Below are positions 14,484 to 28,500 of a DNA stretch of 64,000 bases, in pieces. The notes under the pieces are model-generated. The model did no database searches, had not been told where the DNA came from, and worked only from the letters and a program-made list of their open reading frames with translations. The first letter of the stretch is position 1, and every line of letters begins with the position of its first letter. The position numbers were made by a program, and so were the translations under genes. This DNA is from Planctomyces sp. SH-PL62 (GTDB lineage: Bacteria; Planctomycetota; Planctomycetia; Planctomycetales; Planctomycetaceae), in the NCBI GenBank assembly GCA_945893075.1, contig CAMDDX010000001.1, positions 13,132 to 77,131 of the forward strand. Reading direction: 5' to 3'.

Positions 14484-17400
14484 TCACTTCGCGGAGTCAG
14501 TCGGATTGCTCAGCAAGTACGCGATCACGTCTCGCAACTCTTCCGTCGTCTTCACGACACCTTGTGGCATGGCCGAGACGTCCGCGAGTTTCCGGGCTTC
14601 GATGTCGGACTTGTTGATCGAGACTCGCTTCGTGTCGGGCAGCAGCACTTCCAACTTCTCGCCCGTTTCGCTGACGACGAGACCGGTGATGACTTTTCCA
14701 TCGGTCGTCTGGATCGTGGAAGACTTGAAGACGGGCGAGATCACTTTATTCGGAGCCAGCACCGATTCAACAAGGTACGCCACAGAGAACCGCTTGCCGG
14801 AATCGGCCAAGCTGGGTCCACCGCCACCGGGTTGAGTCGCTGTCGCCGCGTGACACTTCGCGCAGCCCAGCGACTCGGCACCGAATAATTTCTTGCCGCG
14901 TGCGACGTCACCGATCTTCACCGCTTCGGACCAATCGACAGTCAGGAACTTTGGGTCGATCGGCTGCGAGCCACTTCCGGCCGAGATCAATCGTTCCGCC
15001 AGCGACAGACCGTCCGGCTTCTCTGGCAAAGAGAACTTCACGTCGCCGAGATGTTTGAAGTGCAGATACTGCCCGCCACGTCCCGATTGCATCCGCACGC
15101 GGACGAGGATGTCGTTACTGCCCGCCAGCAGATCGAGCGGCACGACATCATCAAGCTGTTGCAACGGTCGGACGGCATCGTTGGTGAAGACCAGCTTGCC
15201 GTTGTGCCAGACGCGAACGCCGTCCTCACTACCAACGAGCAATTGCATGCGCTGAGCGGTCGGCACGTCGAAGCGAACCAGCGAATAGACCGACGAATTC
15301 GGCGACGGACCAAACAGCGTGTTGAAGTTGTAAAGCGGCCGATCCGGACTGGAGGTCTTCGTCAGCTTCCATTCGAACGATTTCCCGGCGACCGCAACTT
15401 TCGCGGCGAGGTCAATCGCCGCGGTCTCGACCGCATGCACGGTCTTGAATCCATCGGCATCCGGCACCGGGCCGAGCATCCACACCTGCGGCCGGACATG
15501 CTCCAGCTTCCCTTGCAGGTTCAGCCGCTTGTCCTGCACGCCGGCCGTGACGGTGGCGATCTTCGGCTCGGAACGCGGATCGTTGAGCAACGATAAGAAA
15601 TGCGCCGCCTGCAACCGCACCTTGTCGTCGTCATCGCTGAGCCGCTCCACGAGCAGCGCGAAGAGTTTCTCTTGTTCGTCAGTGTGCTTGAGCGTCTTCC
15701 AATGTTCGGCCACGGTGTAGTTGCCGACGCGGCCGAACTTGCGCAAGTCGATCGGCTCTTTCTCGTCGGCAAAGAGGATGATGTTCGCTTCCTCTTTCTG
15801 TTGTGGTGCGAGCGGCGCGGCCGCCGGCAACTTGGCATCGACGGCGGGAATCGTCAGCCGAAAACCTGCGATGAGCACGCCCATCATGCGCAATGGTTGT
15901 TCGGGTGCTCGGCTATACGCAGCGGTCAGTTTCGGCAACGGGAGACTCGAAAACACATGACAGGCCCGCACCAGATGGGCGTCGACATCACCTTGTCGCA
16001 GTCTTTCGCGAGTTCCGTCGTCCCAGTCTTGGCGAATCTGCTTCAGCGTGTTTTCTGGATCACGTTCCGCATCCGCCATCAAATCCTCAAGCCTCAACTC
16101 GGCAAACCCCTGTGCCAAGGATTTCGCAAGAGGCTCCACGAGAATTGGTCCAAAGATGGCAACCGTCAGAGCGTCTCCGAAAGCGAGCGGTGGATCAGGT
16201 GGATGCCGGCCAGGATGACGAGTCGTTTTCGGCGACACCTGCCAGCGACGGACCAGCTCGGCAAATGCTGTCGATGACCGATTCCACTCGGCCCGAAAAC
16301 GTTCCTCACGGAGCTTCTCGGCCGCAACACTCGTCAGATCGTATCCGTCGAACGGCATCGTGTCGGGATCGTCCTTGCGCGTGATGACGGCGAGGTCGCT
16401 GCGGTACACGGGCGAACCTTCGTTCTGAGCCATGTAGCAGATCGTGACGAAGACTCGCCCACCGCGACCGACGCAAACGCCAACCGGCCGCGCCTGATCG
16501 CTCCCTTCCAACAGGACATGCTCCTTCGCGGTGAAAGTGCTCCCCTTGGCTTCGAGCGGAAACCGCGTGACTTGTCGGCGACACCAGCGGGCGACGAGCA
16601 GATTGTTCTCGTACTTCTCCGGCAGATAGCCGTCTGCGTAATACGTTTGCAGGACCGGGACGAACCGGCCCAACTCTTCGTTGAGGCTCGGCAGGATGTC
16701 GGCGCGGTCGGGCGATTTGCTCTGCAACCAACCGCGCGGCCAACTGAAGTACGAACCTTCGGTCACATGCAGCAGCCGTCCGGGAACGTAGGCCGATGGC
16801 AGCCCCTCGTGATCGTTGTCGTTGGTGAAGAGGTTCCAATTCTTGTCGAAGCACAGCCCACACGGGTTTCGCAATCCGCGCGAGAAGCTCCGCAGATTGG
16901 TCCCGTCCGGTCGAATGCGAAAGACTCCGCCGACGCCGTTGTACGGCATCGTCGCCCAGTCTTTATCGCCGACACGAATCGTCTTCTCGACGTAGCCCTG
17001 TCGCTCCGCGACAGGAGAACTTTCCTGTCGCGGAGCGACAGGGCTACTTTTGAAGAACATCGTCCAATGCCCCCAGTGATCTGGTCGAGTGAAGTCTCCG
17101 TAATACCACAGCGGATCGCCCATCGAGACATAGAGGTCTCCCTCCGGTCCCCACGCGCAGGCGTGAAAGCACTGATGGACGTGACCGTTCGGCACGCCCC
17201 ACATTAGCCGCTCGATGGTGACACCTTCCCGCTTCAGTCGCGCCCCCGGCAGCCGATAGACCGCGCTGACCGTGACGACGTAAAGGTCGTCGCCTCGAAT
17301 CTCGATGTCGTTGACCCAAGTGTGATCGGGAAACGTGAACAGCAACTGCCGCGGCTTGTACCGCCCGGCCTCGTCGAGGTCGTAGACGAACAGCGTCTTG

Positions 17401-17658: not shown

Positions 17659-17676
17659 GCGGAGAGAGGGTGATTC
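17659..17676. repeat. 18-nt direct repeat (tRNA-Ser 3' end), copy 1, att-like
   Basis: GCGGAGAGAGGGTGATTC matches 24670-24687 at 17 of 18 positions in the same orientation. Confidence 0.6.
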
Positions 17677-17730
17677 GAACCCCCGGTACCCTCACGGGCA
17701 CGCCGGTTTTCAAGACCGGTGGCTCGCCAA
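17660..17730 (-). pseudogene. tRNA-Ser(UGA) remnant lacking the 5' acceptor strand and most of the D arm
   Basis: The minus strand reads CCGGT-CTTGAAA-ACCGG (anticodon UGA), then a long variable arm TGCCC-GTGA-GGGTA, a T arm GGGGG-TTCGAAT-CACCC (one mismatch) and the acceptor 3' strand TCTCTCC-G. No complementary GGAGAGA 5' strand occurs upstream, and the D arm is collapsed (TTGGCGAGCCA). Confidence 0.65.
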
Positions 17731-17869: not shown

Positions 17870-17968
17870 CACGCTGCCGAGTTGGCTCGGATCATCGCGG
17901 TGTGTTCCGAACTGCCGGCGGTGTTGAAGGGGGCGATGCTGGCGATTGTGGACTCGGCCGGCGCGGCG
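17870..17968. repeat. 99-bp repeat module A (encodes [25 protein letters not shown]), copy 1
   Basis: Nearly identical to 21323-21421 (three substitutions seen). A shortened version lies at about 22027-22089. Confidence 0.8.
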
Positions 17969-18107
17969 CGGAGCCGTCCAGGCAAGCCGTAGTGCGGACG
18001 GGCGGGAGTTGCTGTGGGTATCAGGCTGGCCTAGACTCCAATTGAACTTTCCGTGCGTCGAACGGTTGCGGGAACGGCATTGAAACCCTCAAAAATGATG
18101 CTCTGTC

Positions 18108-18935
18108 ATGGCTGACACGCTGAGCACACCGCTACCTGAATACGAATTGCCGCCCGTCATCGAGACGTTGCTCGGCGTACAATTTCAGCGATTGGAAGCA
18201 TGGGGAACGCCGCATTTCGGATTGTTTTGGCAACGAATTCGTGACGAGTACCCCGAATTCGAGATCCAGCCACCTCTCCAAATTCAGGAAGAACTTTTTG
18301 GAGCTGAGGATGTCCGCCCAAAGTCGCTGTCATTTCGACTCCAACAAGAGCCGCCTCTTCGCTGTTGGTTTTTGAATCAAACTGGTGAAAGGCTGCTGCA
18401 AATTCAGAACGGGCACTTCCTCCACAACTGGCGACGGATTCGCGAACAAGACGCCTACCCGCGATATGATCTGACGATTCGCCCGCGATTCGAGACGGAA
18501 TGGCGTCGCTTCTGTGAGTTTCTCGCCAGCGAAAAGATCCCTGAGCCGAAGATTACTCAGTGCGAAGTGATCTATGTGAACCACATTGTCCGTGGAATCG
18601 GCTGGGGGAGTCCCAAGGATTTGCCACAAGTCTTCCCATGCTGGTCGGGTGAGGTTTCTGGGTGTTTCTTACCAACGCCTGAGTCAGTCGTTCTCAATGC
18701 CAACTACGTTTTGCCAAACCAGCAAGGGCGATTACACATCGAGGCGGAGCCAGCAATTCGGGAAGTCGATGCTCAGGAGGTTCTGCAACTGAAACTGACT
18801 GTGCGAGGACGTCCGGCTTCGAGTAGCCTGTCCGACGTCTTGAATTGGTTCGATCTTGGTCGTGAGTGGATTGTTCGCGGGTTTACGGATTTCACATCCG
18901 CTCGAATGCACGAGCTTTGGAAGCGAAAGAGCTAA
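18108..18935 (+). CDS. Hypothetical protein, resembles the TIGR04255 uncharacterised family (recollection only)
   Basis: A 275-aa ORF with ATG start. The pattern VIETLLGVQF..., LLQIQNGHFLHNWRR..YPRY, CEVIYVNHI and a C-terminal WFDLGREWIVRGFTDFTS matches my memory of TIGR04255-type proteins. It is the first gene of a tightly packed three-gene operon. Confidence 0.6.
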   Translation: MADTLSTPLPEYELPPVIETLLGVQFQRLEAWGTPHFGLFWQRIRDEYPEFEIQPPLQIQEELFGAEDVRPKSLSFRLQQEPPLRCWFLNQTGERLLQIQNGHFLHNWRRIREQDAYPRYDLTIRPRFETEWRRFCEFLASEKIPEPKITQCEVIYVNHIVRGIGWGSPKDLPQVFPCWSGEVSGCFLPTPESVVLNANYVLPNQQGRLHIEAEPAIREVDAQEVLQLKLTVRGRPASSSLSDVLNWFDLGREWIVRGFTDFTSARMHELWKRKS

Positions 18936-18937
18936 CC

Positions 18938-19414
18938 ATGCCGCAAGGTCTGTACGAACCACGTCAGCGCGAGCGTCTGTCCGGTGGACAGCGTGGCGGA
19001 TTTGCCGTCAAGCCGGCAACGTCGGCGTTGTGGACCACTGTCAGTTCCCTGAGCGACGCAAGGGAATGGCAGCGGGATGCCTGGAAACAACTCAATGAGG
19101 TTCGTGCATTGCCCGCTGATTGGGATGGTTACGGAAGTCCGGTGATGAGCGAACGCTCTTTCCAACAGGCGTGCAAGCTAATCTTTGCTGTTGAGGTCGA
19201 GTATCTGCCGACTCCGCATCTTGGCCCAGAGTCCGGCGGCGCAGTGCAATTCGATTGGTGCAACGGCCGTCACGCTTTGGAACTGCATTTCCTCGCCGAC
19301 GGCACTGTCTCGTATCTGAAAACCGTCAACGGTGACTGCGAGGCAGACGGAGAACTCCCAGCCAATGCCATCAACGAATGGCGCTCACTGGTCGAGTGGC
19401 TGCAAGAAGGCTGA
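18938..19414 (+). CDS. Hypothetical protein (158 aa)
   Basis: ATG lies 2 nt after the stop of the upstream gene. The protein contains LPADWDGYGSPV. No family was assigned. The track ORF start (18866) overlaps the upstream gene. Confidence 0.6.
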   Translation: MPQGLYEPRQRERLSGGQRGGFAVKPATSALWTTVSSLSDAREWQRDAWKQLNEVRALPADWDGYGSPVMSERSFQQACKLIFAVEVEYLPTPHLGPESGGAVQFDWCNGRHALELHFLADGTVSYLKTVNGDCEADGELPANAINEWRSLVEWLQEG

Positions 19415-19438
19415 TCGGGTTCACGGAGACGAACCGCT

Positions 19439-19867
19439 ATGCCAACGGAACGTGCCGATGACCCAGCCATTCGCAACGAGGATGAGCTTTGGCGTTCCGT
19501 GCATCCCAGCCAATTGTTTTTAGACCCTCAGACAAAGCGGATACGACCAAAATCCGGCGCGTTCATTGACCGGAACACCGGTGAAATGTCGGTTGATGTG
19601 GCCCGCCTGACATCGTTGGATGCCATCCGCCATCGAAGACCACAGCACAGCTTTGCGAAATTCACGGCCGGCGACGTTCGGACGATGGAGTCTGGATACC
19701 GCGTTTGCTCTGATCCGATCCTTCCCAACAACCTGGAACACGAGCCACCGAATCCGGCGCACGCTGTTGTGTGTCCACGAATGAAAAGCTCAGACGCTCA
19801 AAAGCTCGCTACCAGTGAAAACGTCTGGGCCTTCTTGAATTCTCCCGACAGTGCCGCGGCAAGCTAA
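19439..19867 (+). CDS. Hypothetical protein (142 aa)
   Basis: ATG lies 24 nt after the previous stop. This is the third gene of the operon. The protein reads ELWRSVHPSQL...SGAFIDRNTGEMSVDVARL...NPAHAVVCP. No family was assigned. Confidence 0.6.
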   Translation: MPTERADDPAIRNEDELWRSVHPSQLFLDPQTKRIRPKSGAFIDRNTGEMSVDVARLTSLDAIRHRRPQHSFAKFTAGDVRTMESGYRVCSDPILPNNLEHEPPNPAHAVVCPRMKSSDAQKLATSENVWAFLNSPDSAAAS

Positions 19868-19930
19868 CGGACAAGGCCGAGCGAGGAACGCCACACCCAC
19901 CAATCTGACGCGGAAGTCCTGAGAACCGCA

Positions 19931-20061
19931 CGGCGAGTGGACGGTGAGGTGAGATGGCTGATCGAACGGTGAGACGGACGGTGCCACGGATCGGCTGGCC
20001 GGGAGTGTAAGCAGCGACGTTGTGGCTGACATGGACACAACCTCGAAGGTCGCGGGGATCG
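19931..20061. repeat. 131-bp repeat module S, copy 1
   Basis: CGGCGAGTGG.CGGTGAGGTG.GATGGC.GATCGAACGGTGAGACGGACGGTGCCACGGATCGGCT...GTCGCGGGGATCG recurs with the same length at 21417-21547, with scattered substitutions. Its first 20 nt recur at 22085-22104. Confidence 0.85.
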
Positions 20062-20155
20062 GATGGGTTTCGTCAATGAGCGGCGGGGTTGTGTCGGCAA
20101 GACTGGTGGGCACCGCGTCTTCCGAAGTCCGTCCATCGACGCCAGCATCTCGACA

Positions 20156-20788
20156 TCAGCGCGCCGGTTCCAAGCCGTCAAACAGTGCGGGAAGTTCCCC
20201 ACGTCGTCGGCGTTCAAAGAAACTGGCGGACAAACCGGATGGAATTGCGTTTCCATCAGGTGGATGCAGCTTCGCGAGATTCGGAAGGTCCGAAGGATGG
20301 CCAAACAGGCGGTGCTTCAACTCGCGAGCCTCTGCTGAAGACTCGGCATTCAAGAGCGTCCAAAGCCGAAACATCGTCTGCCGCGCCGACACCAGCGCGG
20401 GCCGATTCAACAGGCAGAGATCAATCAAGGCTTGCCCCTCGGCGGACTTCGCGATGACCGCACCGTCAGGGCTGACAGAGACATGCTCTGCCACTCGGTC
20501 TCGACACGGATTGAGTGGCGAATCGTGATCCTGTTTGGCCGAGTTACAACCGCAACAGGCATAGACCAAATTGGCGTAGTCGCGAGCCAAATCCGGCTGC
20601 CGGGACTGCGACTGAAGATGCTCCACGCTGAAGGCGGCATCACCGGCGGAGCTCCACGTTTCACGCCACAGACAGTAAACACAGCGAAAGGCAAACTCAT
20701 CGCGAAGCCAAGGCTTGAACGAGCGATAATCGTTGTAGCCTCGCGGCCCATGACGGCGTTGGTGAGCGTGCTGCGGATAGTCGAACAT
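20156..20788 (-). CDS. HNH-family nuclease (210 aa)
   Basis: FRCVYCLWRE...FSVEHLQSQS...NLVYACCGCNSAKQD is an HNH beta-beta-alpha-metal core with two Cys pairs. The start lies 9 nt downstream of the RHH gene stop. Confidence 0.75.
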   Translation of the reverse strand: MFDYPQHAHQRRHGPRGYNDYRSFKPWLRDEFAFRCVYCLWRETWSSAGDAAFSVEHLQSQSRQPDLARDYANLVYACCGCNSAKQDHDSPLNPCRDRVAEHVSVSPDGAVIAKSAEGQALIDLCLLNRPALVSARQTMFRLWTLLNAESSAEARELKHRLFGHPSDLPNLAKLHPPDGNAIPSGLSASFFERRRRGELPALFDGLEPAR

Positions 20789-20797
20789 GCCGCGCTC

Positions 20798-21148
20798 TCA
20801 AGTGGCTGTGACCGTGCCAGTGTGTGGGACAACGCGATCGACTGCCTCTCGCATGGCGGCCACATCGCTCAGCAATTGCGAGTCCCAAGCTTCCAGCCGT
20901 TCTGTCGCCAAGTCTTGCAGGTGTTCCAACTCGCGCGTTTCCGCCGCATCCAACCCCTGAGTGAACCGCTGATGAATCAACGCGACTCGCCGAGCATTCT
21001 TGGCCGACCAATCATCACTGGAATCGTCGGCATCAATCGCCGCATCCAGAATGGTCACGACCAATGATTCCACCGTGGTTCGTTGTGACTGAGCTTTCTT
21101 CTCCAACCGAGCGGCCAGTCTTTCCGGCACTGCGATCGTTTGCGACAT
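20798..21148 (-). CDS. Ribbon-helix-helix (CopG/Arc-like) protein, putative partner or antitoxin of the HNH nuclease
   Basis: MSQTIAVPERLAARLEKKAQSQRTTVESLVVTILDAAI has an RHH N-terminal pattern and is followed by a helical tail. The start is set at the internal Met (the track ORF runs to 21166). Confidence 0.65.
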   Translation of the reverse strand: MSQTIAVPERLAARLEKKAQSQRTTVESLVVTILDAAIDADDSSDDWSAKNARRVALIHQRFTQGLDAAETRELEHLQDLATERLEAWDSQLLSDVAAMREAVDRVVPHTGTVTAT

Positions 21149-21219
21149 GACAAGTCTCTCCCACAAACACTCGGTGGCTCTGAACGAGAATCAATCTATC
21201 GGACTCACCCGCAGTCAGA

Positions 21220-21237
21220 CAAGACGCTTGCGTCTTG
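21220..21237. promoter_or_regulatory. Candidate operator palindrome upstream of the RHH-HNH operon
   Basis: CAAGACGC-TT-GCGTCTTG has perfect 8-bp arms and lies 72 nt upstream of the RHH start codon. It is duplicated at 21999-22016, upstream of the second RHH copy. Confidence 0.35.
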
Positions 21238-21322
21238 CTCGGTGTCCCGTCCTCGATTCCATCCACTTCCGCGTCTTGCCGGGAGAGTTTGCGTTCGACG
21301 ACTGCGCGGGAAGGAATTTGGC

Positions 21323-21421
21323 CACGCTGCCGAGTTGGCTCGGATCGTCGCGGCGTGGTCCGAACTGCCGGCGGTGTTGAAGGGGGCGATGCTGGCGATT
21401 GTGGACTCGGCCGGCGCGGCG
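21323..21421. repeat. 99-bp repeat module A, copy 2
   Basis: See 17870-17968. It directly abuts repeat module S copy 2. Confidence 0.8.
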
Positions 21422-21547
21422 AGTGGGCGGTGAGGTGGGATGGCGGATCGAACGGTGAGACGGACGGTGCCACGGATCGGCTAGCCGCGAGTGTGAGCAG
21501 CGACGTGGTGGCTGACATTGATACAACCTCGAAAGTCGCGGGGATCG
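21417..21547. repeat. 131-bp repeat module S, copy 2
   Basis: See 19931-20061. Confidence 0.85.
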
Positions 21548-21576
21548 TGCTGCGGATAGTCGAACATGCCGCGCTC

Positions 21577-21927
21577 TCAAGTGGCCGTCGCCGTACCGGT
21601 GTGTGGGACAACGCGCTCGACCGCCTCTCGCATCGCCGCAACATCGCTCAGCAATTGCGAGTCCCAGGCTTCCAGCCGTTCTGTCGCCAAGTCTTGCAAG
21701 TGTTCCAACTCGCGCGTTTCCGCCGCATCCAACCCCTGAGCGAACCGCTGATGAATCAACGCGACTCGCCGAGCATTCTTGGCGGACCAATCATTACTGG
21801 AATCGTCGGCATCAATCGCCGCATCCAGAATGGTCACGACCAATGATTCCACCGTGGTTCGTTGTGACTGAGCTTGCTTCTCCAGTCGAGCGACCAATCT
21901 TTCCGGCACTGCGATCGTTTGCGACAT
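21577..21927 (-). CDS. Ribbon-helix-helix protein, duplicate copy (orphan: its HNH partner is reduced to 7 codons)
   Basis: The 116-aa translation is almost identical to that of 20798-21148. Downstream, only MFDYPQH of the HNH gene remains before the junction with module S. Confidence 0.5.
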   Translation of the reverse strand: MSQTIAVPERLVARLEKQAQSQRTTVESLVVTILDAAIDADDSSNDWSAKNARRVALIHQRFAQGLDAAETRELEHLQDLATERLEAWDSQLLSDVAAMREAVERVVPHTGTATAT

Positions 21928-21998
21928 GACAAGTCTCTCCCACAAACACTCGGTGGCTCTGAACGAGAATCAATCTATCGGACACGCCCGCAGTCAGA

Positions 21999-22016
21999 CA
22001 AGACGCTTGCGTCTTG
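21999..22016. promoter_or_regulatory. Candidate operator palindrome, duplicate copy
   Basis: Same 8-2-8 palindrome as at 21220-21237. Confidence 0.3.
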
Positions 22017-22026
22017 CTCGGTGTCG

Positions 22027-22089
22027 GCTGAATTGCAAGCGGTGTTGCAGGGGGCGATGCTTGCGATTGTGGACGCCACCGGTGCGGCG
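22027..22089. repeat. Repeat module A, shortened copy 3
   Basis: It encodes [21 protein letters not shown] and aligns to the ends of the 99-bp module with the middle missing. The first 20 nt of module S follow it. Confidence 0.6.
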
Positions 22090-22244
22090 AGTGGGCGGTG
22101 AGGTTGACTTGGCCGACGGACAGTTGTGCCATGAAGCGAGTCTTGGCCGGAGATTTTTCGATCGACTGCCGAGCGGCGAACCAACCGATCCGATTGTCTT
22201 CATCGCAGCACGGGCTGAGCGTCGTTTTTTGTGGGGCTTTCAGA

Positions 22245-23333
22245 ATGGCGAATTCCGAACACGTTGAAGTCGTTCGCAAGGGAACGGAAGCGATTCGATT
22301 GTGGCATGAGCGCAATCCCAACGAGTCGTTGAACCTTATCGAGGCAGACCTAAGCGGCGCAAATTTAAGCGGCGCGAACCTCAGGAGGGCAAATCTCTAC
22401 GGGGCGAACCTCATCAGGACGGATCTAAGCCGGTCGGACCTAATTCTTTCGGCCCTAATCGAGGCGAACCTCGGCGGGGCGAGCCTCATCGAAGCGAACC
22501 TAAACGGGGCGCAACTCATTGAAGCGAACCTCATCGGAACAAACCTCGACGGGACGAACCTCAGCGGGGCGAATCTCAACACTGTGTGCTGTGAGCATAC
22601 GGCGTTCACAGACGTTGATCTTTCACGTGTCGTGGGGCTTGAAACAGCGAGGCACAACGGACCGTCTTCAGTGGGCATCGACACCCTCTCCAAATCAAAA
22701 GGCCAGATCCCCGAAGTATTCCTGCGTGGTTGCGGCTTACGCGATTGGGAAATCGTTGCCTCCCGCTTGTACGCTGAGGGACTGACTCCCGATCGGATTA
22801 CGACCATCGGTTATGAACTCATCAACCTGAGAAACGATCAGCCGATTCAGTTCTTCTCGGCGTTTATCTCGTATGGTCACGCAGATAAGCCGTTCGCTCG
22901 GCGGTTGCACGATGCGCTTCAGAAACGCGGCATTCGCTGTTGGCTGGACGCGCACCAATTGCTTCCGGGTGATGACATTCACGAGCAGGTTGATCGTGGC
23001 ATTCGACTATGGGACAAGGTGCTGCTGTGTGGGTCTCGGCATTCGCTCACCAGTTGGTGGGTCGATAATGAAATTGAGACGGCCTTCGCCAAAGAACGTG
23101 AGTTGATGGAAGAGCGTGGCCGGAAGGTGCTGTCGTTGATCCCGTTGAATCTGGACAGCTTTCTGTTCGGGTGGGTCAACGGCAAGGCTCAACAAGTGAA
23201 ATCACGCCTCGCCGCCGACTTCACGGGCTGGGAGACGGACAACGCTACGTTTGAGCGGGAACTTGAGAAGTTGGTCAAAGCTCTGCGAGCCGACGATGGC
23301 GGACGGCCACCCGCACCGGAACCGAAGTTGTGA
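22245..23333 (+). CDS. Pentapeptide-repeat / TIR-domain fusion protein
   Basis: The N-terminal half has consecutive A(D/N)LxG-type pentapeptides ([33 protein letters not shown]...[18 protein letters not shown]). The C-terminal half has TIR motifs [39 protein letters not shown] and [15 protein letters not shown] (candidate catalytic Glu). The start is set at ATG 22245 (the track ORF starts at 22098, inside the repeat modules). Confidence 0.8.
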
Positions 23334-23482
23334 AGGCCCCACGCCCATGCCGCCGTCCGGACCTTCACGGCCATCGTGCGAGCAGTTTTGGAGTTCGCTC
23401 GTTCTCGTTCCGATGCTATGTTGATGGCCGTGTCGAGTCATTGTGACGGTGCGAGTGCTTGCTTCCGCTCAGGAGTTGTCTG

Positions 23483-23944
23483 ATGAATTCTGTCACCATT
23501 CGATTGTCGAAGCCTGCGTTCGATCGCTTGCAGCAAGCGGCTCGCCGGTCGCGGCGGAGCGTGGATGAGTACGCTTCGGAGATGTGTGCGACGATGGCCA
23601 CGGTTGGTCCCGGTGAATTCTTCGTACCGTTGGGAGACTGTCGTGGGTTGCGAATGAAACGCTGGAAGGACAGCCTCGCTGACATCGACGCGGCTCTGAA
23701 AGTGATGGAGTTTCTCAGCGAGGCTGACTTGAAGCGGGCCTTCAAGACCGTGCCCACCAAACAGAGTCAGCAGGAGATGGCCGACCTCAACGACAAGGCA
23801 CAAAGCGTCGGTCTGACGAAGGCCGAGAAACAGCGATCCGAAGAACTTCGCGAATACTTCGACCAGTGCCAACTCATTCGCGCGAACGCGGCGGCGGTCT
23901 TGAAGCAACGTGGCTTTGACGTCAATAAGTTGCTGCGACCATGA
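23483..23944 (+). CDS. Ribbon-helix-helix-like protein, putative partner of the downstream HNH nuclease
   Basis: MNSVTIRLSKPAFDRLQQAARRSRRSVDEYASEM has an RHH-like N-terminus and is followed by a helical tail. Its stop overlaps the HNH start (ATGA at 23941-23944). Confidence 0.55.
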   Translation: MNSVTIRLSKPAFDRLQQAARRSRRSVDEYASEMCATMATVGPGEFFVPLGDCRGLRMKRWKDSLADIDAALKVMEFLSEADLKRAFKTVPTKQSQQEMADLNDKAQSVGLTKAEKQRSEELREYFDQCQLIRANAAAVLKQRGFDVNKLLRP

Positions 23945-24369
23945 GTGCGGCTTCCGTCTCGAAAAAGCTGCGGCAGAAAGTCGCTCGGCGTGCCAAGCAG
24001 CGCTGTGGGTATTGTTTGGTGGCGTCTTCGATCACCGGCGTCGAATTGCAGATCGAACATTTGTGGCCCACGTCCAAAGGTGGTCTGACCGTCGAGGACA
24101 ATCTTTGGCTGGCTTGCGCGGAATGCAACCAACGAAAATCTGATCGAACGCGAGTCGTTGATCCGCTGACAAAGAAAGAAGTGCCGTTATTTAATCCTCG
24201 CCAAGATGGTTGGCAGGATCATTTTCGTTGGTCGGACGACGGAACCGAAATCGTCGGATTGACGGCCGTTGCTCGCGCGACGATCGTCGCATTGCAACTC
24301 AACCGGCCAGCTCGAATCGCCGCAAGGCGGCGATGGGTGAGCGTCGGCTGGCATCCACCGAAAGACTGA
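23941..24369 (+). CDS. HNH endonuclease (142 aa)
   Basis: CGYCL...LQIEHLWPTSKGGLTVEDNLWLACAECNQRKSD is a canonical HNH core with two Cys pairs. Confidence 0.8.
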   Translation: MSAASVSKKLRQKVARRAKQRCGYCLVASSITGVELQIEHLWPTSKGGLTVEDNLWLACAECNQRKSDRTRVVDPLTKKEVPLFNPRQDGWQDHFRWSDDGTEIVGLTAVARATIVALQLNRPARIAARRRWVSVGWHPPKD

Positions 24370-25500: not shown

Positions 25501-28500
25501 ATGCAACTCACAAACTGGTTACGCGGCATTCCCCGACGGGTTCGTCGAGCAGTTCCTGTGTCACGTCGCCGGACCAGTCAGCGACCGAATCCGCTGACCA
25601 CGAAGTCGCACTGGGCAAGCTACGCAGAGTCGCTGGAATCGCGCACGCTGTTGTCCGGAGTGCAGACTTTCGGGGATGGCTTTGGCTCATTGAATCGCGC
25701 GAGTGGCGATGGGACGACGCTCGATTTCTCTGCAGTGTCGGGCGGTCTCGTCTTCACTGTTTCGGGTGATTCGGTGAGCGTGTCGTATGCCGACACGAAT
25801 CGCAGCGACCTGCTGACGTATTCTGCGGACGGACTGGGCTACTCGATCGTTGGCTCGCAGGGTAGCGATCAGTTCCTGGTGGTAAGTGACGGACAATTGA
25901 CGTCGATCGACGCTGGGCCTGGTGAGGACTCCATTCGGTTTGATTCGACGACCGGCGTCGCGCGGAGCGGGGCGGACACGATCGCAACTCGCAGCGACTT
26001 GTCGACCTTCACGTTGACGGGGATCGAGAGCTTGACCGGGCATGTCGCGCTGGGATCCGCCTTGCGAGGCGAGATCAATCAGGCGTTCGACCGCTGGACC
26101 GGGGTTGCGACGGAGTTCGTTCAGGGCGAAGTGTTGTCGGCCCAGATTCCGTTTTTGAATGTCTCGCTGGTTCAAGCACTCAACCGTGGCTTTGATGCGG
26201 CGGCAGTGACGGTCCCTTCGCTGGCGGATGCGAGGAACTATGCCCTCGATTTGCTGACGATCCAGACCGCGCCGCTCGCGAGTTTCGGTGACTTGGGGGG
26301 ACTCGCGAGTGCTTTGGAGAGCCAGTTCAACTCGGTCACGTCGGGCAGTCCTTTTACGGTCACGGCCGGGATTCATGATTGGTCAGAGCTGCGATTCGAT
26401 GTGTCGTTTAATGCCTCACGCTCGTTTGCGTTCGCTCCGTCGCTGTCGCCGGAAATCACTGCGGCGTTGGGAGCGGCAGGCATTGAGTTGTCGGCGTTCT
26501 CGAATCTCGATGTGCAGACGCGGCTTGGCGGTTCGGTCGAGGTCGGCATCCGACTGGATGGGTTGACCGCGCTGAACGGCGCGAGCGGGTTCGCTGATCG
26601 AGGTTTCCTGCGCGTGCATCCGCTCTCGGTCGAAGTGGATTCGAGCTTTGAGAACTTGTCGGTGGCAGCGGGACTTTCGGCTCAAGTGTTTGGGTCGGCG
26701 GCGACGGTCAATGTTGTGAATGGGACAGTGAATCTCGATGCGCGGGCGGAGTTGTCGCTCGATCCGAACGGGGCGGATGGCAGCGGGCGGTTTACACTCG
26801 CGGCGCTTGCTGCGGCACCGGCGGTTCAGTTTCAAGCTTCGGGAAGTCTCGATGCGCGGCTGCCGCTGAGCGCGACGCTCGGACAGTTCGACCTCAGCCA
26901 GTACGGCACGCCGATCCTGATCTTGGCGACCGACAGTTTGTTCGAGTACCGCGACGACCGTTTGCTGATTACGACGCCCGCCGTGTCGCTGGATGTGTCG
27001 ATCAATCCGGCGCTGGCCGAGCGATTGCTGGACCTGTTGGGACAGGTGCGTGATCTGGGTCAGAAGCTGCCGCTGGACCTCTTCAACAAAGAGATTCCGG
27101 GGCTTGGTCAGAGTCTCAACCAGTTGCTGACGAACAGCGCCTCGACCGTCGAAGCGGGCGGGCTGGGCGGGACGTTCAAGCTCAAAGACGCGGTGGGGCA
27201 TTACTTCTACAGCGATTACGAGTCGGCGACTGGCATCGGTTTGACGTTCAATTTGGGGATCTCGGTGCGTGGGATGCTCGAAGCGTTGAATCGCGCGCTG
27301 GCGAGCCTGACTCAAGTGAAGTTCTCGATCGGGGACTTCGATTGGTCGGACAAGAATCTGGCGGGGTTCGACTTCTCCGCGTTTCGTATTTCGGGCGGGC
27401 TCTCGTTGGACTTCCTGCGCGGGTTCAATTTCTCAGGAGCGGATCTGCGCGGTGTTAACCTCAGTGGTCTGGATCTGACTGGGATCGACTTCTCCGGCGC
27501 ACGCTTCGACTTCTCGACGAACTTTTTCGGATCGATCCTGCGGTGGGTCAACTTTTCGGGCTGCGATCTGCGCGGCGTCGATTTTTCGGGACTCGATCTT
27601 CGTTGGGCCGACTTCAGCGGGTCGTGGCTCGACGGCGCGAAGTTCAATTTCGCCCTCGCGTTCGATGTCAATTTTGCCAACATCCGGTTCTCGATCGGCA
27701 AGCTGCCGAACGTTGGCAATCTGCTGTCAAACTTTGATCTGACGAGCTTGTTCGGCGCGTCGAGCGGTTGGAAGAGGCTCTCGTTCGGGCTCGATCTGTC
27801 CGGCTGGTCGCTGAAGAACTGGAGCCGCTTCGATCTTTCGGGATTGGATTTTTCGGGCGTCAATCTGTCGGGGTTCAATCTCAGCGGCGTCAACTTGCGC
27901 GGCATCTCGTTTCATGGCGCGACTCTGAACTTCGTCGACTTCAGCGGCGCGTTTGGCTGGAACGTGCGTTGGGGGACGCTCGCCGGTTCGAGCAGCGTCA
28001 ACATTTCGGGACTGCTCCACAACGGGCAATTGCCGAGTTGGTCGTCGTCAACGGGCACCGCCCATCAGTGGGGATCGGGACTCGATCTGTCGGGCTTCAA
28101 TTTCTCTGGCTGGGATCTGTCGGGACTCGACTTCAGCGGCATCACTTTCAGCGGGGCCAACTTCAGCGGCGCGAAACTGTTCGGCGTTCGCTTCCCCAGC
28201 TTCGATGTCAATTTGAACTTCAGCTTTGCGGACTTCCGAGGCTTCGATCTCAGCGGACTGAGCGAGTTGCTGGGCAAGTTTCGCGGTGCGAATTTTTCGG
28301 GACTCGACTTCAGCGGCATCACGTTTGGCATCGGGTCGATCGACTTCTCCGGCGCGAACTTCAGCGGCTGTTTCAATCTGGGTGGCTTGTTCAGCGGGCT
28401 GTCGGGCAGCTTCCGTCGGCTGTTCAACGGCGTGAGCTTCGGTGGCGTCGACTTCAGCGGCTTGTCGTCGAGCATCAAGCTCAACTTCAAATTCGGTTCG

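Follow-up and report, generated by a model that had tools for sequence, protein, structure and literature searches.

A pentapeptide-repeat beta-solenoid fused to a TIR domain in Planctomyces: a putative stand-alone sensor-effector NADase

A stretch of 64,000 nucleotides from Planctomyces sp. SH-PL62, hereafter the window, carries an intact gene in which pentapeptide repeats precede a TIR domain. What would a single protein made of these two parts do, and does it belong to bacterial immunity, as an initial annotation proposed? The gene is a confirmed fusion of a pentapeptide-repeat beta-helix with a TIR domain: the Pentapeptide profile PF00805 reaches 90.8 bits (cut-off 20.2, E 3.6e-26, residues 30-128) and the TIR_2 profile PF13676 reaches 82.3 bits (cut-off 28, E 5.1e-23, residues 207-338), so that both domains pass their Pfam cut-offs. 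The same protein is called, with identical sequence, on six other metagenome contigs. The listed open reading frame extends from 22098 to 23333, but alignment with 23 homologues places the true start at the ATG at 22245, where the protein begins with MANSEHVE and the family with MANPEHLE. The 49-residue N-terminal extension of the listed frame is spurious. It was still present in a first structure model, built on 24 sequences and moderately confident in the TIR domain, which was replaced by an AlphaFold2 model built on 120 sequences (mean pLDDT 91). In the latter, a helical linker connects a beta-solenoid with a TIR domain of flavodoxin-like fold. The protein of 362 amino acids, followed by a stop codon, is laid out as follows.

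22245..23333, + strand: complete pentapeptide-repeat/TIR gene (open reading frame list, start fixed by homologues, Pfam domains)
22245..22322, + strand: N-terminal two-helix cap, residues 1-26 (model helices, family motif)
22323..22628, + strand: pentapeptide-repeat beta-solenoid, residues 27-128 (PF00805, model, Foldseek and phmmer matches)
22629..22844, + strand: solenoid C-cap and conserved helical linker, residues 129-200 (conserved columns, model helices)
22845..23285, + strand: TIR domain, residues 201-347 (PF13676, phmmer, Foldseek, conservation)
23070..23072, + strand: GAA codon of Glu276, the predicted catalytic glutamate (alignment with AbTir and PdTIR, conservation)
23286..23330, + strand: conserved C-terminal tail of 15 residues (near-invariant residues)

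The N-terminal cap is made up of two helices (residues 4-11 and 14-23, pLDDT 97-98), and its motif, MANPEHL...W..WR..NP, is kept across the family in the homologue alignments. The regular repeats that follow are shorter than the approximately 140 residues initially annotated: they occupy about 100-110 residues, or 20-22 pentads of the A[DN]LxG type, and form only about five coils. In the model a strand recurs every five residues (pLDDT 98-99). Solved pentapeptide-repeat proteins match this part in Foldseek and in phmmer searches of the PDB (E down to 5.6e-29), and the fold is the right-handed quadrilateral beta-helix that Foldseek finds in common with MfpA, Qnr and AlbG. Within the family, the solenoid varies five-fold in length, from 11 to 54 pentads.

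The likeness to MfpA and Qnr led the initial annotation to suggest that the solenoid imitates B-DNA as a decoy, and that binding of a phage DNA-binding protein activates the TIR NADase. Such a mechanism would be one particular form of a sensor-effector protein and does not compete with an immune role. The common beta-helix is in agreement with it, as is the charge of the surface: the net charge is negative in 90% of the family solenoids (median -6; -7 in the window protein). However, the charge ranges from -18 to +8, with 10% of the solenoids neutral or basic, and the top-ranking structures belong to repeat proteins, cyanobacterial and synthetic, that have no DNA-mimic role. The likeness to Qnr and MfpA is a generic repeat similarity, far below the equivalog cut-offs (QnrA 29 against 450 bits, MfpA 23.4 against 360, Qnr 22.6 against 240). 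A solenoid of only about five coils also speaks against the decoy, and the five-fold variation in length implies that no fixed DNA-like rod is conserved. Finally, most proteins with pentapeptide repeats are not known to mimic DNA, which counts in the same direction. We therefore regard mimicry of DNA as improbable.

The repeats have also given rise to a different name. Gimesia homologues are automatically called 'secreted effector protein PipB2' in some databases, from which a secreted or injected effector or toxin could be imagined, and the NCBIfam models PipB and PipB2 do match the repeat region (E 8e-14 and 2e-12). These matches are confined to the repeats and, with 51 and 47 bits, fall far under the cut-offs of 274 and 354. 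Furthermore, no signal peptide was seen in the protein and no secretion-system genes were seen beside the window gene or its homologues, while the family occurs in free-living bacteria of soil and water from many phyla. Secretion is thus a very improbable explanation.

Between solenoid and TIR domain lies a linker with the motif GLET.H.GPS..GIDTL.KS.G.IPE.FLRGCGL, in which H137, S141, T147, F159 and G164 of the C-cap and linker are invariant or nearly so among 120 homologues. Its helices span residues 145-196 (pLDDT 76-98). The family uses two discrete linker lengths, of about 46 and about 66 amino acids, and the window protein has the long, 66-residue form. At the other end, the tail is modelled at low confidence (pLDDT 54-57) and has the family consensus ALRAD.G.RE.PP..KL, with R348, R354, E355, P358 and L362 near-invariant.

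In the TIR domain, strands at 206-209, 232-234, 258-263 and 298-302 alternate with helices (pLDDT 82-96) in a flavodoxin-like arrangement. Foldseek matches it to the SPARTA TIR-APAZ protein (rmsd 2.7 A over 145-148 columns, 25% identity), then to Cat1, and also to TLR1, and phmmer finds AbTir, PdTIR, TcpB/BtpA and Cat1 among solved structures. The TIR motifs that had been named at the outset are present, a stretch of 16 residues and SWWVDNEIE among them, and the glutamate put forward as catalytic was borne out as a candidate. It is Glu276 in SWWVDNE (W272-x-x-x-E276), at the start of helix C, and it aligns with the glutamate of the WxxxE motif of AbTir and PdTIR (in AbTir E208, counted along the AbTir chain). 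Glu276 is kept in all 120 close homologues and in 146 of 148 sequences of a representative TIR alignment, in which W272, E284 and D304 are found in all 148. With Glu276 and Trp272 intact, the domain looks catalytically competent.

It is not an unusual architecture. It occurs, under generic database names, in more than 4,600 proteins from many soil and aquatic phyla, and clustering at 50% identity gives at least 790 groups. By two search patterns, at least 268 of about 185,000 species genomes carry it. The two parts of the protein have different histories of change. In the two closest relatives the TIR domain is 93% identical and the solenoid 49-51%, with 20-35 indel columns, and the family medians are 71% for the TIR domain (119 homologues) against 40% for the solenoid. 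Judged from these alignments, divergence is much faster in the repeats than in the TIR domain. Linker and tail are, like the TIR domain, very highly conserved across phyla. For a gene engaged in an arms race, a TIR domain so well conserved across phyla is unusual, and this counts against immunity.

Tandem or nearby copies occur in about 10 of 79 homologue loci, up to three in a row, and several genomes have three or four copies. The idea that tandem copies combine a constant TIR domain with differing solenoids was dropped: both parts are old and divergent in these copies, with a TIR identity of 38-74%. The TIR module is also found outside the family. Among its best 148 representatives, 105 have pentapeptide repeats. 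Relatives that are 55-68% identical, tail included, are attached to AAA_16-TPR, DUF4062-TPR, Pkinase and Trypsin_2 (3 proteins), and further fusions within the same range of identity involve ParA-like, SEFIR, Response_reg and KdpD-N modules. Because the matches reach the end of the query, the tail travels with the TIR module when it is fused to other N-terminal domains. The Response_reg, KdpD-N, ParA-like and kinase fusions fit ordinary signal transduction equally well, which is a second observation counting against immunity.

The surroundings of the gene give little indication of a system to which it would belong. It sits in a 7.8-kb variable island of lower GC content with duplicated segments, beside a degenerate tRNA-Ser-like remnant without D arm; an intact tRNA integration site was not found with ARAGORN. 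An integron-cassette reading of the 99-nt repeat 'A' was considered and set aside. The repeat resembles the 3' end of a duplicated small open reading frame. A scan for promoters and terminators around the gene found nothing and is uninformative for this organism. The two neighbouring pairs first described as RHH-HNH are confirmed in their HNH part: the HNH genes match PtuB models of PADLOC (E 2e-16 and 8e-14), while their small partners give sub-threshold RHH scores (E 0.01-0.1). A third RHH-like copy lies at 21577-21945 without an adjoining HNH gene. Against the NCBIfam PtuB model the HNH genes reach 24.5 bits, below the cut-off of 150, and the PtuA ATPase gene of Septu was not found in the island, so that they are orphan PtuB-like genes. 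With Pfam, PADLOC and NCBIfam profiles no complete known defence system was found in the 7.8 kb. The context is a small variable island and not a clear defence island.

The homologues do not point to a partner either. All-against-all clustering of open reading frames found no conserved partner gene among 79 genome loci. The best neighbour cluster is present in 9 of the 79, several of them Pyrinomonadaceae records, and synteny is stable within one group of acidobacterial genomes, again with several Pyrinomonadaceae. Flanking genes share the strand of the gene only 52-61% of the time, and the HNH and RHH neighbours seen in the window are not conserved beside homologues. When 147 immediate neighbours were scanned with Pfam and PADLOC, the only recurrence among the best 25 families listed was that of the gene's own paralogues. 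That these matches include no recurrent known defence family counts against immunity. Many of the 147 are housekeeping genes, for example PEPCK, CPSase and Obg.

This bears on the possibility that the TIR domain works as in Thoeris, making a nucleotide signal, such as a cADPR isomer or His-ADPR, for an effector encoded elsewhere. TIR chemistry permits such signal production, and there are weak ThsB-type matches (ThsB_TIR 20.6 against a cut-off of 21.2 bits; PADLOC ThsB, E 8e-6; Thoeris type III ThcB4, E 5.7e-8, 32 bits against a cut-off of 220). All of these scores are under the family cut-offs, however, and no ThsA-like, SLOG, Macro or SIR2 gene is present in the window island or recurrent in the 79 homologue loci. 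The horizontal transfer of the gene alone argues against the need for a separate effector. A signal generator of this kind is improbable.

As to mobility, a Planctomyces metagenome-assembled genome has 90% nucleotide identity to the window over 22803-23343 only, with unrelated flanks, and a copy of the gene on a Skermanella plasmid is interrupted by two IS256 elements. In eight of the nine 20-kb contexts that were inspected there are mobile or conflict genes, including GmrSD_N, IS elements, integrases, Abi_alpha, CAP12-PCTIR_TIR, RVT_1+HTH, CHAT and a DruA fragment; the ninth is purely housekeeping. With an iterative HMM search, tyrosine recombinases turned up in no more than 5 of the 79 loci, and an enrichment of integrases is not clear. 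A phage origin was rejected: tblastn gave no match to the family in 50,697 phage genomes, only two loci were found on IMG/VR viral contigs, and the PHROGs matches are to generic repeat and TIR families only. The near absence of the family from phage genomes, its rarity on viral contigs, the many housekeeping neighbours, the one purely housekeeping context and the small number of tyrosine recombinases also count against immunity.

It could then be imagined that the protein has a regulatory or housekeeping role outside immunity. The solenoid would bind a host protein that is itself conserved, such as a topoisomerase or another DNA enzyme in the manner of MfpA, and the TIR domain would be a scaffold or a regulated enzyme of NAD(P)-linked stress signalling. 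The conservation of TIR domain, linker and tail across phyla is in accordance with this, as are the housekeeping neighbours, the stable acidobacterial synteny and the presence of the TIR module on Response_reg, KdpD-N and ParA-like proteins. On the other hand, the distribution is patchy (the 268 species genomes mentioned above), the gene transfers alone, occurs in multiple copies and tandem arrays, and has been inactivated by IS elements on a plasmid. Moreover, IS elements, integrases and conflict genes accompany it in eight of the nine contexts, and the putative binding surface diverges rapidly. A non-immune role is unlikely on this balance.

The reading that we prefer, with a probability of about one half, is that of a stand-alone cytoplasmic sensor-effector TIR NADase, a one-gene, NAD+-consuming conflict or immunity protein. 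It is consistent with the conservation of the active site, the lack of a partner gene, the fast divergence of the solenoid beside the slow divergence of the TIR domain, the paralogue arrays, the recurrence of the TIR module beside other sensor or regulator modules, and the frequent mobile and conflict genes in the surroundings. The place of the gene in a variable island and the sensor role given to pentapeptide repeats in the literature fit this reading as well. A single cytoplasmic polypeptide would act as both sensor and effector: the N-terminal solenoid would be the variable part that binds a ligand or protein, and the C-terminal TIR domain would cleave NAD+. As long as no trigger is bound, solenoid and helical linker probably separate the TIR domains or keep them from acting; the most likely trigger is a phage component or one of some other mobile element. 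To our knowledge, all characterised TIR NADases require self-association. Binding of the trigger may bring about such self-association, and the resulting depletion of NAD+ would stop the growth of the infected cell in an abortive infection. The gene would function alone and move between genomes alone. A more daring version, to which we attach little probability, is that these proteins form a widespread and hitherto unrecognised class of one-gene immune receptors, in which DNA-binding or anti-defence proteins of phages are baited by the solenoid, possibly through mimicry of a nucleic acid. Their capture would then lead to TIR assembly and a collapse of NAD+, and tandem arrays would constitute a recognition repertoire without an NTPase switch.

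Sensor-coupled TIR NADases are central to bacterial, plant and animal immunity. If the gene is a defence gene, it would represent a compact new type of sensor, in which a TIR domain is paired with a pentapeptide solenoid alone, and it would provide one of the first clear functions for the abundant and poorly understood pentapeptide-repeat proteins. The paralogue arrays would then lend themselves, as a natural series, to the mapping of recognition specificity. If the protein is not immune, the unusually conserved TIR domain, linker and tail would point to a conserved cellular NAD-linked pathway.

How does the protein relate to known systems? No model of PADLOC or NCBIfam spans its full length, all matches covering the TIR or the repeat part only. 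The single-gene model of the PADLOC candidate system PDC-S66 is matched at positions 146-232 of 282 only, the TIR core (E 6.2e-11), short of a full-length match. In the literature library that was searched, no paper was found on a characterised system with this architecture, in agreement with what had been stated initially. Of all solved structures, those of the TIR NADases AbTir, PdTIR and TcpB (BtpA) match best in sequence (E 4.6e-6 to 2e-3). These enzymes have in common with the window protein the FIS[HY] strand, the GD of the BB-loop region and the W-x-x-x-E motif. At an identity of about 25-30%, they differ in having an N-terminal coiled coil or uncharacterised region instead of a pentapeptide solenoid, and the linker and C-terminal tail conserved in the window subfamily are particular to it. 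The pentapeptide proteins MfpA, Qnr and AlbG are alike in their quadrilateral beta-helix and mildly acidic surface, but they have no enzymatic domain, and the repeat number of the window family varies widely. Thoeris ThsB, an infection-sensing TIR protein with weak profile similarity, has a different N-terminal architecture, and the window protein lacks a ThsA partner.

In the literature, pentapeptide repeats are treated, together with TPR, LRR, HEAT and WD40 repeats, as the ligand-recognition part of NLR-like bNACHT and other conflict proteins, and a pentapeptide-repeat channel protein has been described in the Hailong defence system. These proteins use an NTPase switch or an ion channel, whereas the window solenoid meets its TIR domain through a helical linker alone. 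The closest TIR folds are those of SPARTA TIR-APAZ and then Cat1. SPARTA (TIR-APAZ with a short pAgo), the CARF-TIR protein Cat1, TIR-STING and the STAND/NLR-like TIR proteins are immune effectors of one chain or one complex that deplete NAD+ once their sensor has driven oligomerisation. With them, the window protein has in common that a variable, in its case putative, sensor is fused to a constant TIR effector. Unlike these effectors, it is without NTPase, CARF, STING, APAZ or Argonaute partner, and the solenoid alone occupies the position of the sensor. The central STAND NTPase of bNACHT and Avs-like proteins is missing in particular, although one relative of the TIR module, P0183, has AAA_16-TPR. 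The characterised bacterial sensor-coupled TIR NADases use nucleotide-binding, Argonaute, CARF, STING or STAND sensors. On the basis of its sequence and predicted fold, the pentapeptide-repeat/TIR protein is best read as an uncharacterised variant of this group.

The pentapeptide-repeat/TIR gene is enclosed by a plus-strand open reading frame at 22098-23333. Alignment with 23 homologues shows that its conserved part starts at the ATG at 22245 (MANSEHVE, against MANPEHLE in the family), and the coordinates 22245-23333 of the initial annotation are therefore right, with a product of 362 amino acids. Both predicted domains lie far above the Pfam cut-offs: Pentapeptide (PF00805, E = 3.6e-26, residues 30-128) and, towards the C-terminus, TIR_2 (PF13676, E = 5.1e-23, residues 207-338). 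The regular repeats span about 100-110 residues (20-22 pentads) and not 140 as first estimated, while the TIR motifs named at that stage, one of 16 residues and SWWVDNEIE, were all found. On its own, the TIR part matches AbTir (E = 4.6e-6), PdTIR, TcpB/BtpA and Cat1 in phmmer searches. The glutamate proposed earlier as catalytic, Glu276, lines up with the W-x-x-x-E glutamate of these proteins, which in AbTir we take to be the catalytic E208 by counting along the chain. Glu276 is kept in all of 120 homologues; of the 148 sequences in the representative TIR alignment, 146 have it and every one has Trp272.

An AlphaFold2 model built from 120 sequences (mean pLDDT 91) predicts an N-terminal two-helix cap followed by a solenoid with one strand per five residues (pLDDT 98-99), then a four-helix linker and a flavodoxin-like TIR domain with a flexible BB loop. 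Foldseek matches the model to pentapeptide-repeat proteins of solved structure and, for the TIR part, to SPARTA (rmsd 2.7 Å), Cat1 and TLR1.

The gene belongs to a large, conserved family. At E < 1e-3, a word-indexed search matched over 4,665 proteins; the best 120 all share the architecture, with identities of 44-72%. An exhaustive search with linker plus TIR gave 790 representatives, each standing for a 50%-identity cluster, at E < 1e-30 and 4,411 at E < 1e-10. With one genome per species and two peptide patterns, 268 genomes encode a detectable relative. The carriers include Acidobacteriota, Chloroflexota, Planctomycetota, Verrucomicrobiota and Desulfobacterota, besides Calditrichia, Deferribacteres, several Proteobacteria and a MAG of the Firmicutes genus Heliomicrobium.

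Within this family, a variable N-terminal solenoid is combined with a constant C-terminal half. Compared with the two closest relatives, the TIR domain is 93% identical and the solenoid 49-51%, with 20-35 indel columns; median identities across the family are 71% and 40%, respectively. Solenoids contain 11 to 54 pentads, linkers fall into two discrete length classes of about 46 and 66 residues, and the C-terminal tail is conserved (ALRAD.G.RE.PP..KL). Three points weaken the earlier proposal that the solenoid senses its trigger specifically as a DNA-mimic decoy, a mode that appears very doubtful: its likeness to Qnr and MfpA does not go beyond the generic, the solenoid charge is inconsistent (-18 to +8, and neutral or basic in 10% of members) and solenoid length varies five-fold.

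Pentapeptide repeats are present on 105 of the 148 top representatives. The TIR module including its tail also recurs, at 55-68% identity, behind AAA_16-TPR (1,465 aa), DUF4062-TPR, Ser/Thr kinase, Trypsin_2 (three proteins), ParA-like NTPase, SEFIR, Response_reg and KdpD-N modules; it is a promiscuous effector module. Related proteins that carry this TIR subfamily with its tail on AAA_16-TPR, Ser/Thr kinase, Trypsin_2, ParA-like, SEFIR and KdpD-N modules are P0183, P0170, P0194, P0204, P0219, P0205, P0254, P0188 and P0225. A constant TIR half joined to variable N-terminal modules follows the pattern of conflict systems, in which the effector is constant and the sensor variable. Several of the partners, though, would equally suit ordinary signalling, and a non-immune regulatory role is conceivable, if rather unlikely; that of a secreted effector is hardly credible.

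Family members have no conserved partner gene. Clustering of all ORFs gave no neighbour family shared by more than 9 of 79 loci, and the one found in 9 reflects synteny of an acidobacterial genome group (several Pyrinomonadaceae). Flanking genes are co-oriented with the homologue in only about half of the cases. Among 147 immediate neighbours searched with Pfam and PADLOC, many are housekeeping genes, and the sole theme to recur among the top 25 families listed is paralogues, which account for 7-9 of the neighbours. A Thoeris-like signal generator would have to act on an unlinked effector, which we regard as quite improbable. Tandem or nearby paralogues, up to three in a row, occur in about 10 of the 79 loci, and some genomes hold 3-4 family copies. 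Arrays of two to three paralogues, which diverge from each other in both domains, were observed in homologue loci L008 (2500-5864), L012 (1969-4359), L017 (8873-11137), L080 (10001-12841) and L084 (8800-11245), from Chitinivibrionales, Chloroflexia, Deferribacteres, Gimesia panareensis and Acidobacteriaceae.

The gene also moves alone: a Planctomyces MAG has 90% nucleotide identity to the window over 22803-23343 and nothing beyond. On the Skermanella rosea plasmid pSR-5 (L090, 5832-9588), two IS256 insertions separate the pentapeptide-repeat part from the TIR part. According to precomputed annotation, mobile or conflict genes lie within 10 kb on eight of the nine long contigs inspected (GmrSD_N, IS66, IS110 and other transposases, integrases, Abi_alpha, a CAP12-PCTIR TIR protein, RVT_1 with HTH, CHAT proteases and a DruA fragment); the ninth has housekeeping genes only. 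A purpose-built HMM search for tyrosine recombinases was positive in no more than 5 of the 79 loci. The family was not found in phage genomes, and only two viral contigs carry a member.

In the window, the gene resides in a probably horizontally acquired, variable island of 7.8 kb (about 17.7-25.5 kb; G+C 0.56-0.57 against about 0.61). Its left flank is a Planctomycete-type cytochrome/PSD gene, within which lies a 57-nt near-perfect palindromic hairpin (16992-17047) with spurious microRNA-family matches in Rfam. Its right flank is a giant plus-strand ORF of more than 12,800 aa, from the ATG at 25501 past the window end at 64000. This ORF has an LESRTLLSG-type motif at its N-terminus and, at about 27.4-33 kb, 15-nt periodicity, weak pentapeptide-like tblastn matches and strong AT skew; being open at the window end, it is absent from the ORF list.

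Features of the island
17660-17729, minus strand: degenerate tRNA-Ser(UGA)-like remnant at the left edge (anticodon, variable and T arms, no D arm)
17870-17968: repeat A, also at 21323-21421 (97%) and 22030-22104 (88%)
18108-19867, plus strand: three co-directional, tightly spaced genes, encoding a TIGR04255-family protein (275 aa), a protein of 158/182 aa whose C-terminus matches PADLOC candidate PDC-M32A (E = 4.7e-7), and a 142-aa protein with no family match
19928-20061: repeat B, also at 21414-21547 (92%)
20156-20788, minus strand: HNH endonuclease gene
20761-21246: repeat C, also at 21540-22025 (95%)
23941-24369, plus strand: HNH endonuclease gene

The tRNA-like remnant may be an old integration scar; its score against the tRNA clan is 22.3 bits, and ARAGORN does not call it. 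The region 17870-22104 is a patchwork of duplicated segments, in which repeat A codes for AELARI[IV], 23 further residues and a stop. The genes of 18108-19867 may constitute an uncharacterised three-gene module. The HNH genes resemble PtuB of Septu and retron Ec78 (E = 2e-16 and 8e-14), and no PtuA ATPase gene accompanies them in the island. A small gene precedes each of them, and one of the three small RHH-like genes in the island is a 95% duplicate without its HNH. Of the two RHH-HNH pairs recognized initially, the HNH part holds, the RHH similarity of the partners being sub-threshold only; they resemble either orphan HNH modules or pairs of the toxin-antitoxin kind, and such genes do not adjoin family members elsewhere. 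The context suggested to be defence-island-like is a variable island with PtuB-like genes, in which no complete known defence system was found.

The best-supported model, to which we assign a probability of about one half, is a stand-alone sensor-effector protein whose TIR domain would cleave NAD+ and arrest the cell. The solenoid would serve as a recognition or regulatory surface, coupled by the conserved linker to the TIR domain, and a trigger would lead to TIR self-association, NAD+ cleavage and arrest. The analysis shows the domain architecture and active site, the autonomy of the gene, the divergence of its N-terminal half, the paralogy and the shuffling of the TIR module; the enzymatic activity, how it is activated, the trigger and a phenotype are inferred. 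A role in defence is plausible.

Full-text searches retrieved no paper characterising this architecture, in keeping with the initial annotation, and no PADLOC or NCBIfam model spans the full length, matches being limited to the TIR core or the repeats. The architecture is common and already catalogued under generic or automatic names ('toll/interleukin-1 receptor domain-containing protein', 'YjbI with pentapeptide repeats', 'PipB2'). Where the searched literature takes up pentapeptide repeats, it treats them only as sensor-type repeats of NLR-like and other conflict proteins, and one pentapeptide-repeat channel protein is described in the Hailong system. The general logic of coupling a TIR effector to a repeat sensor is already established.
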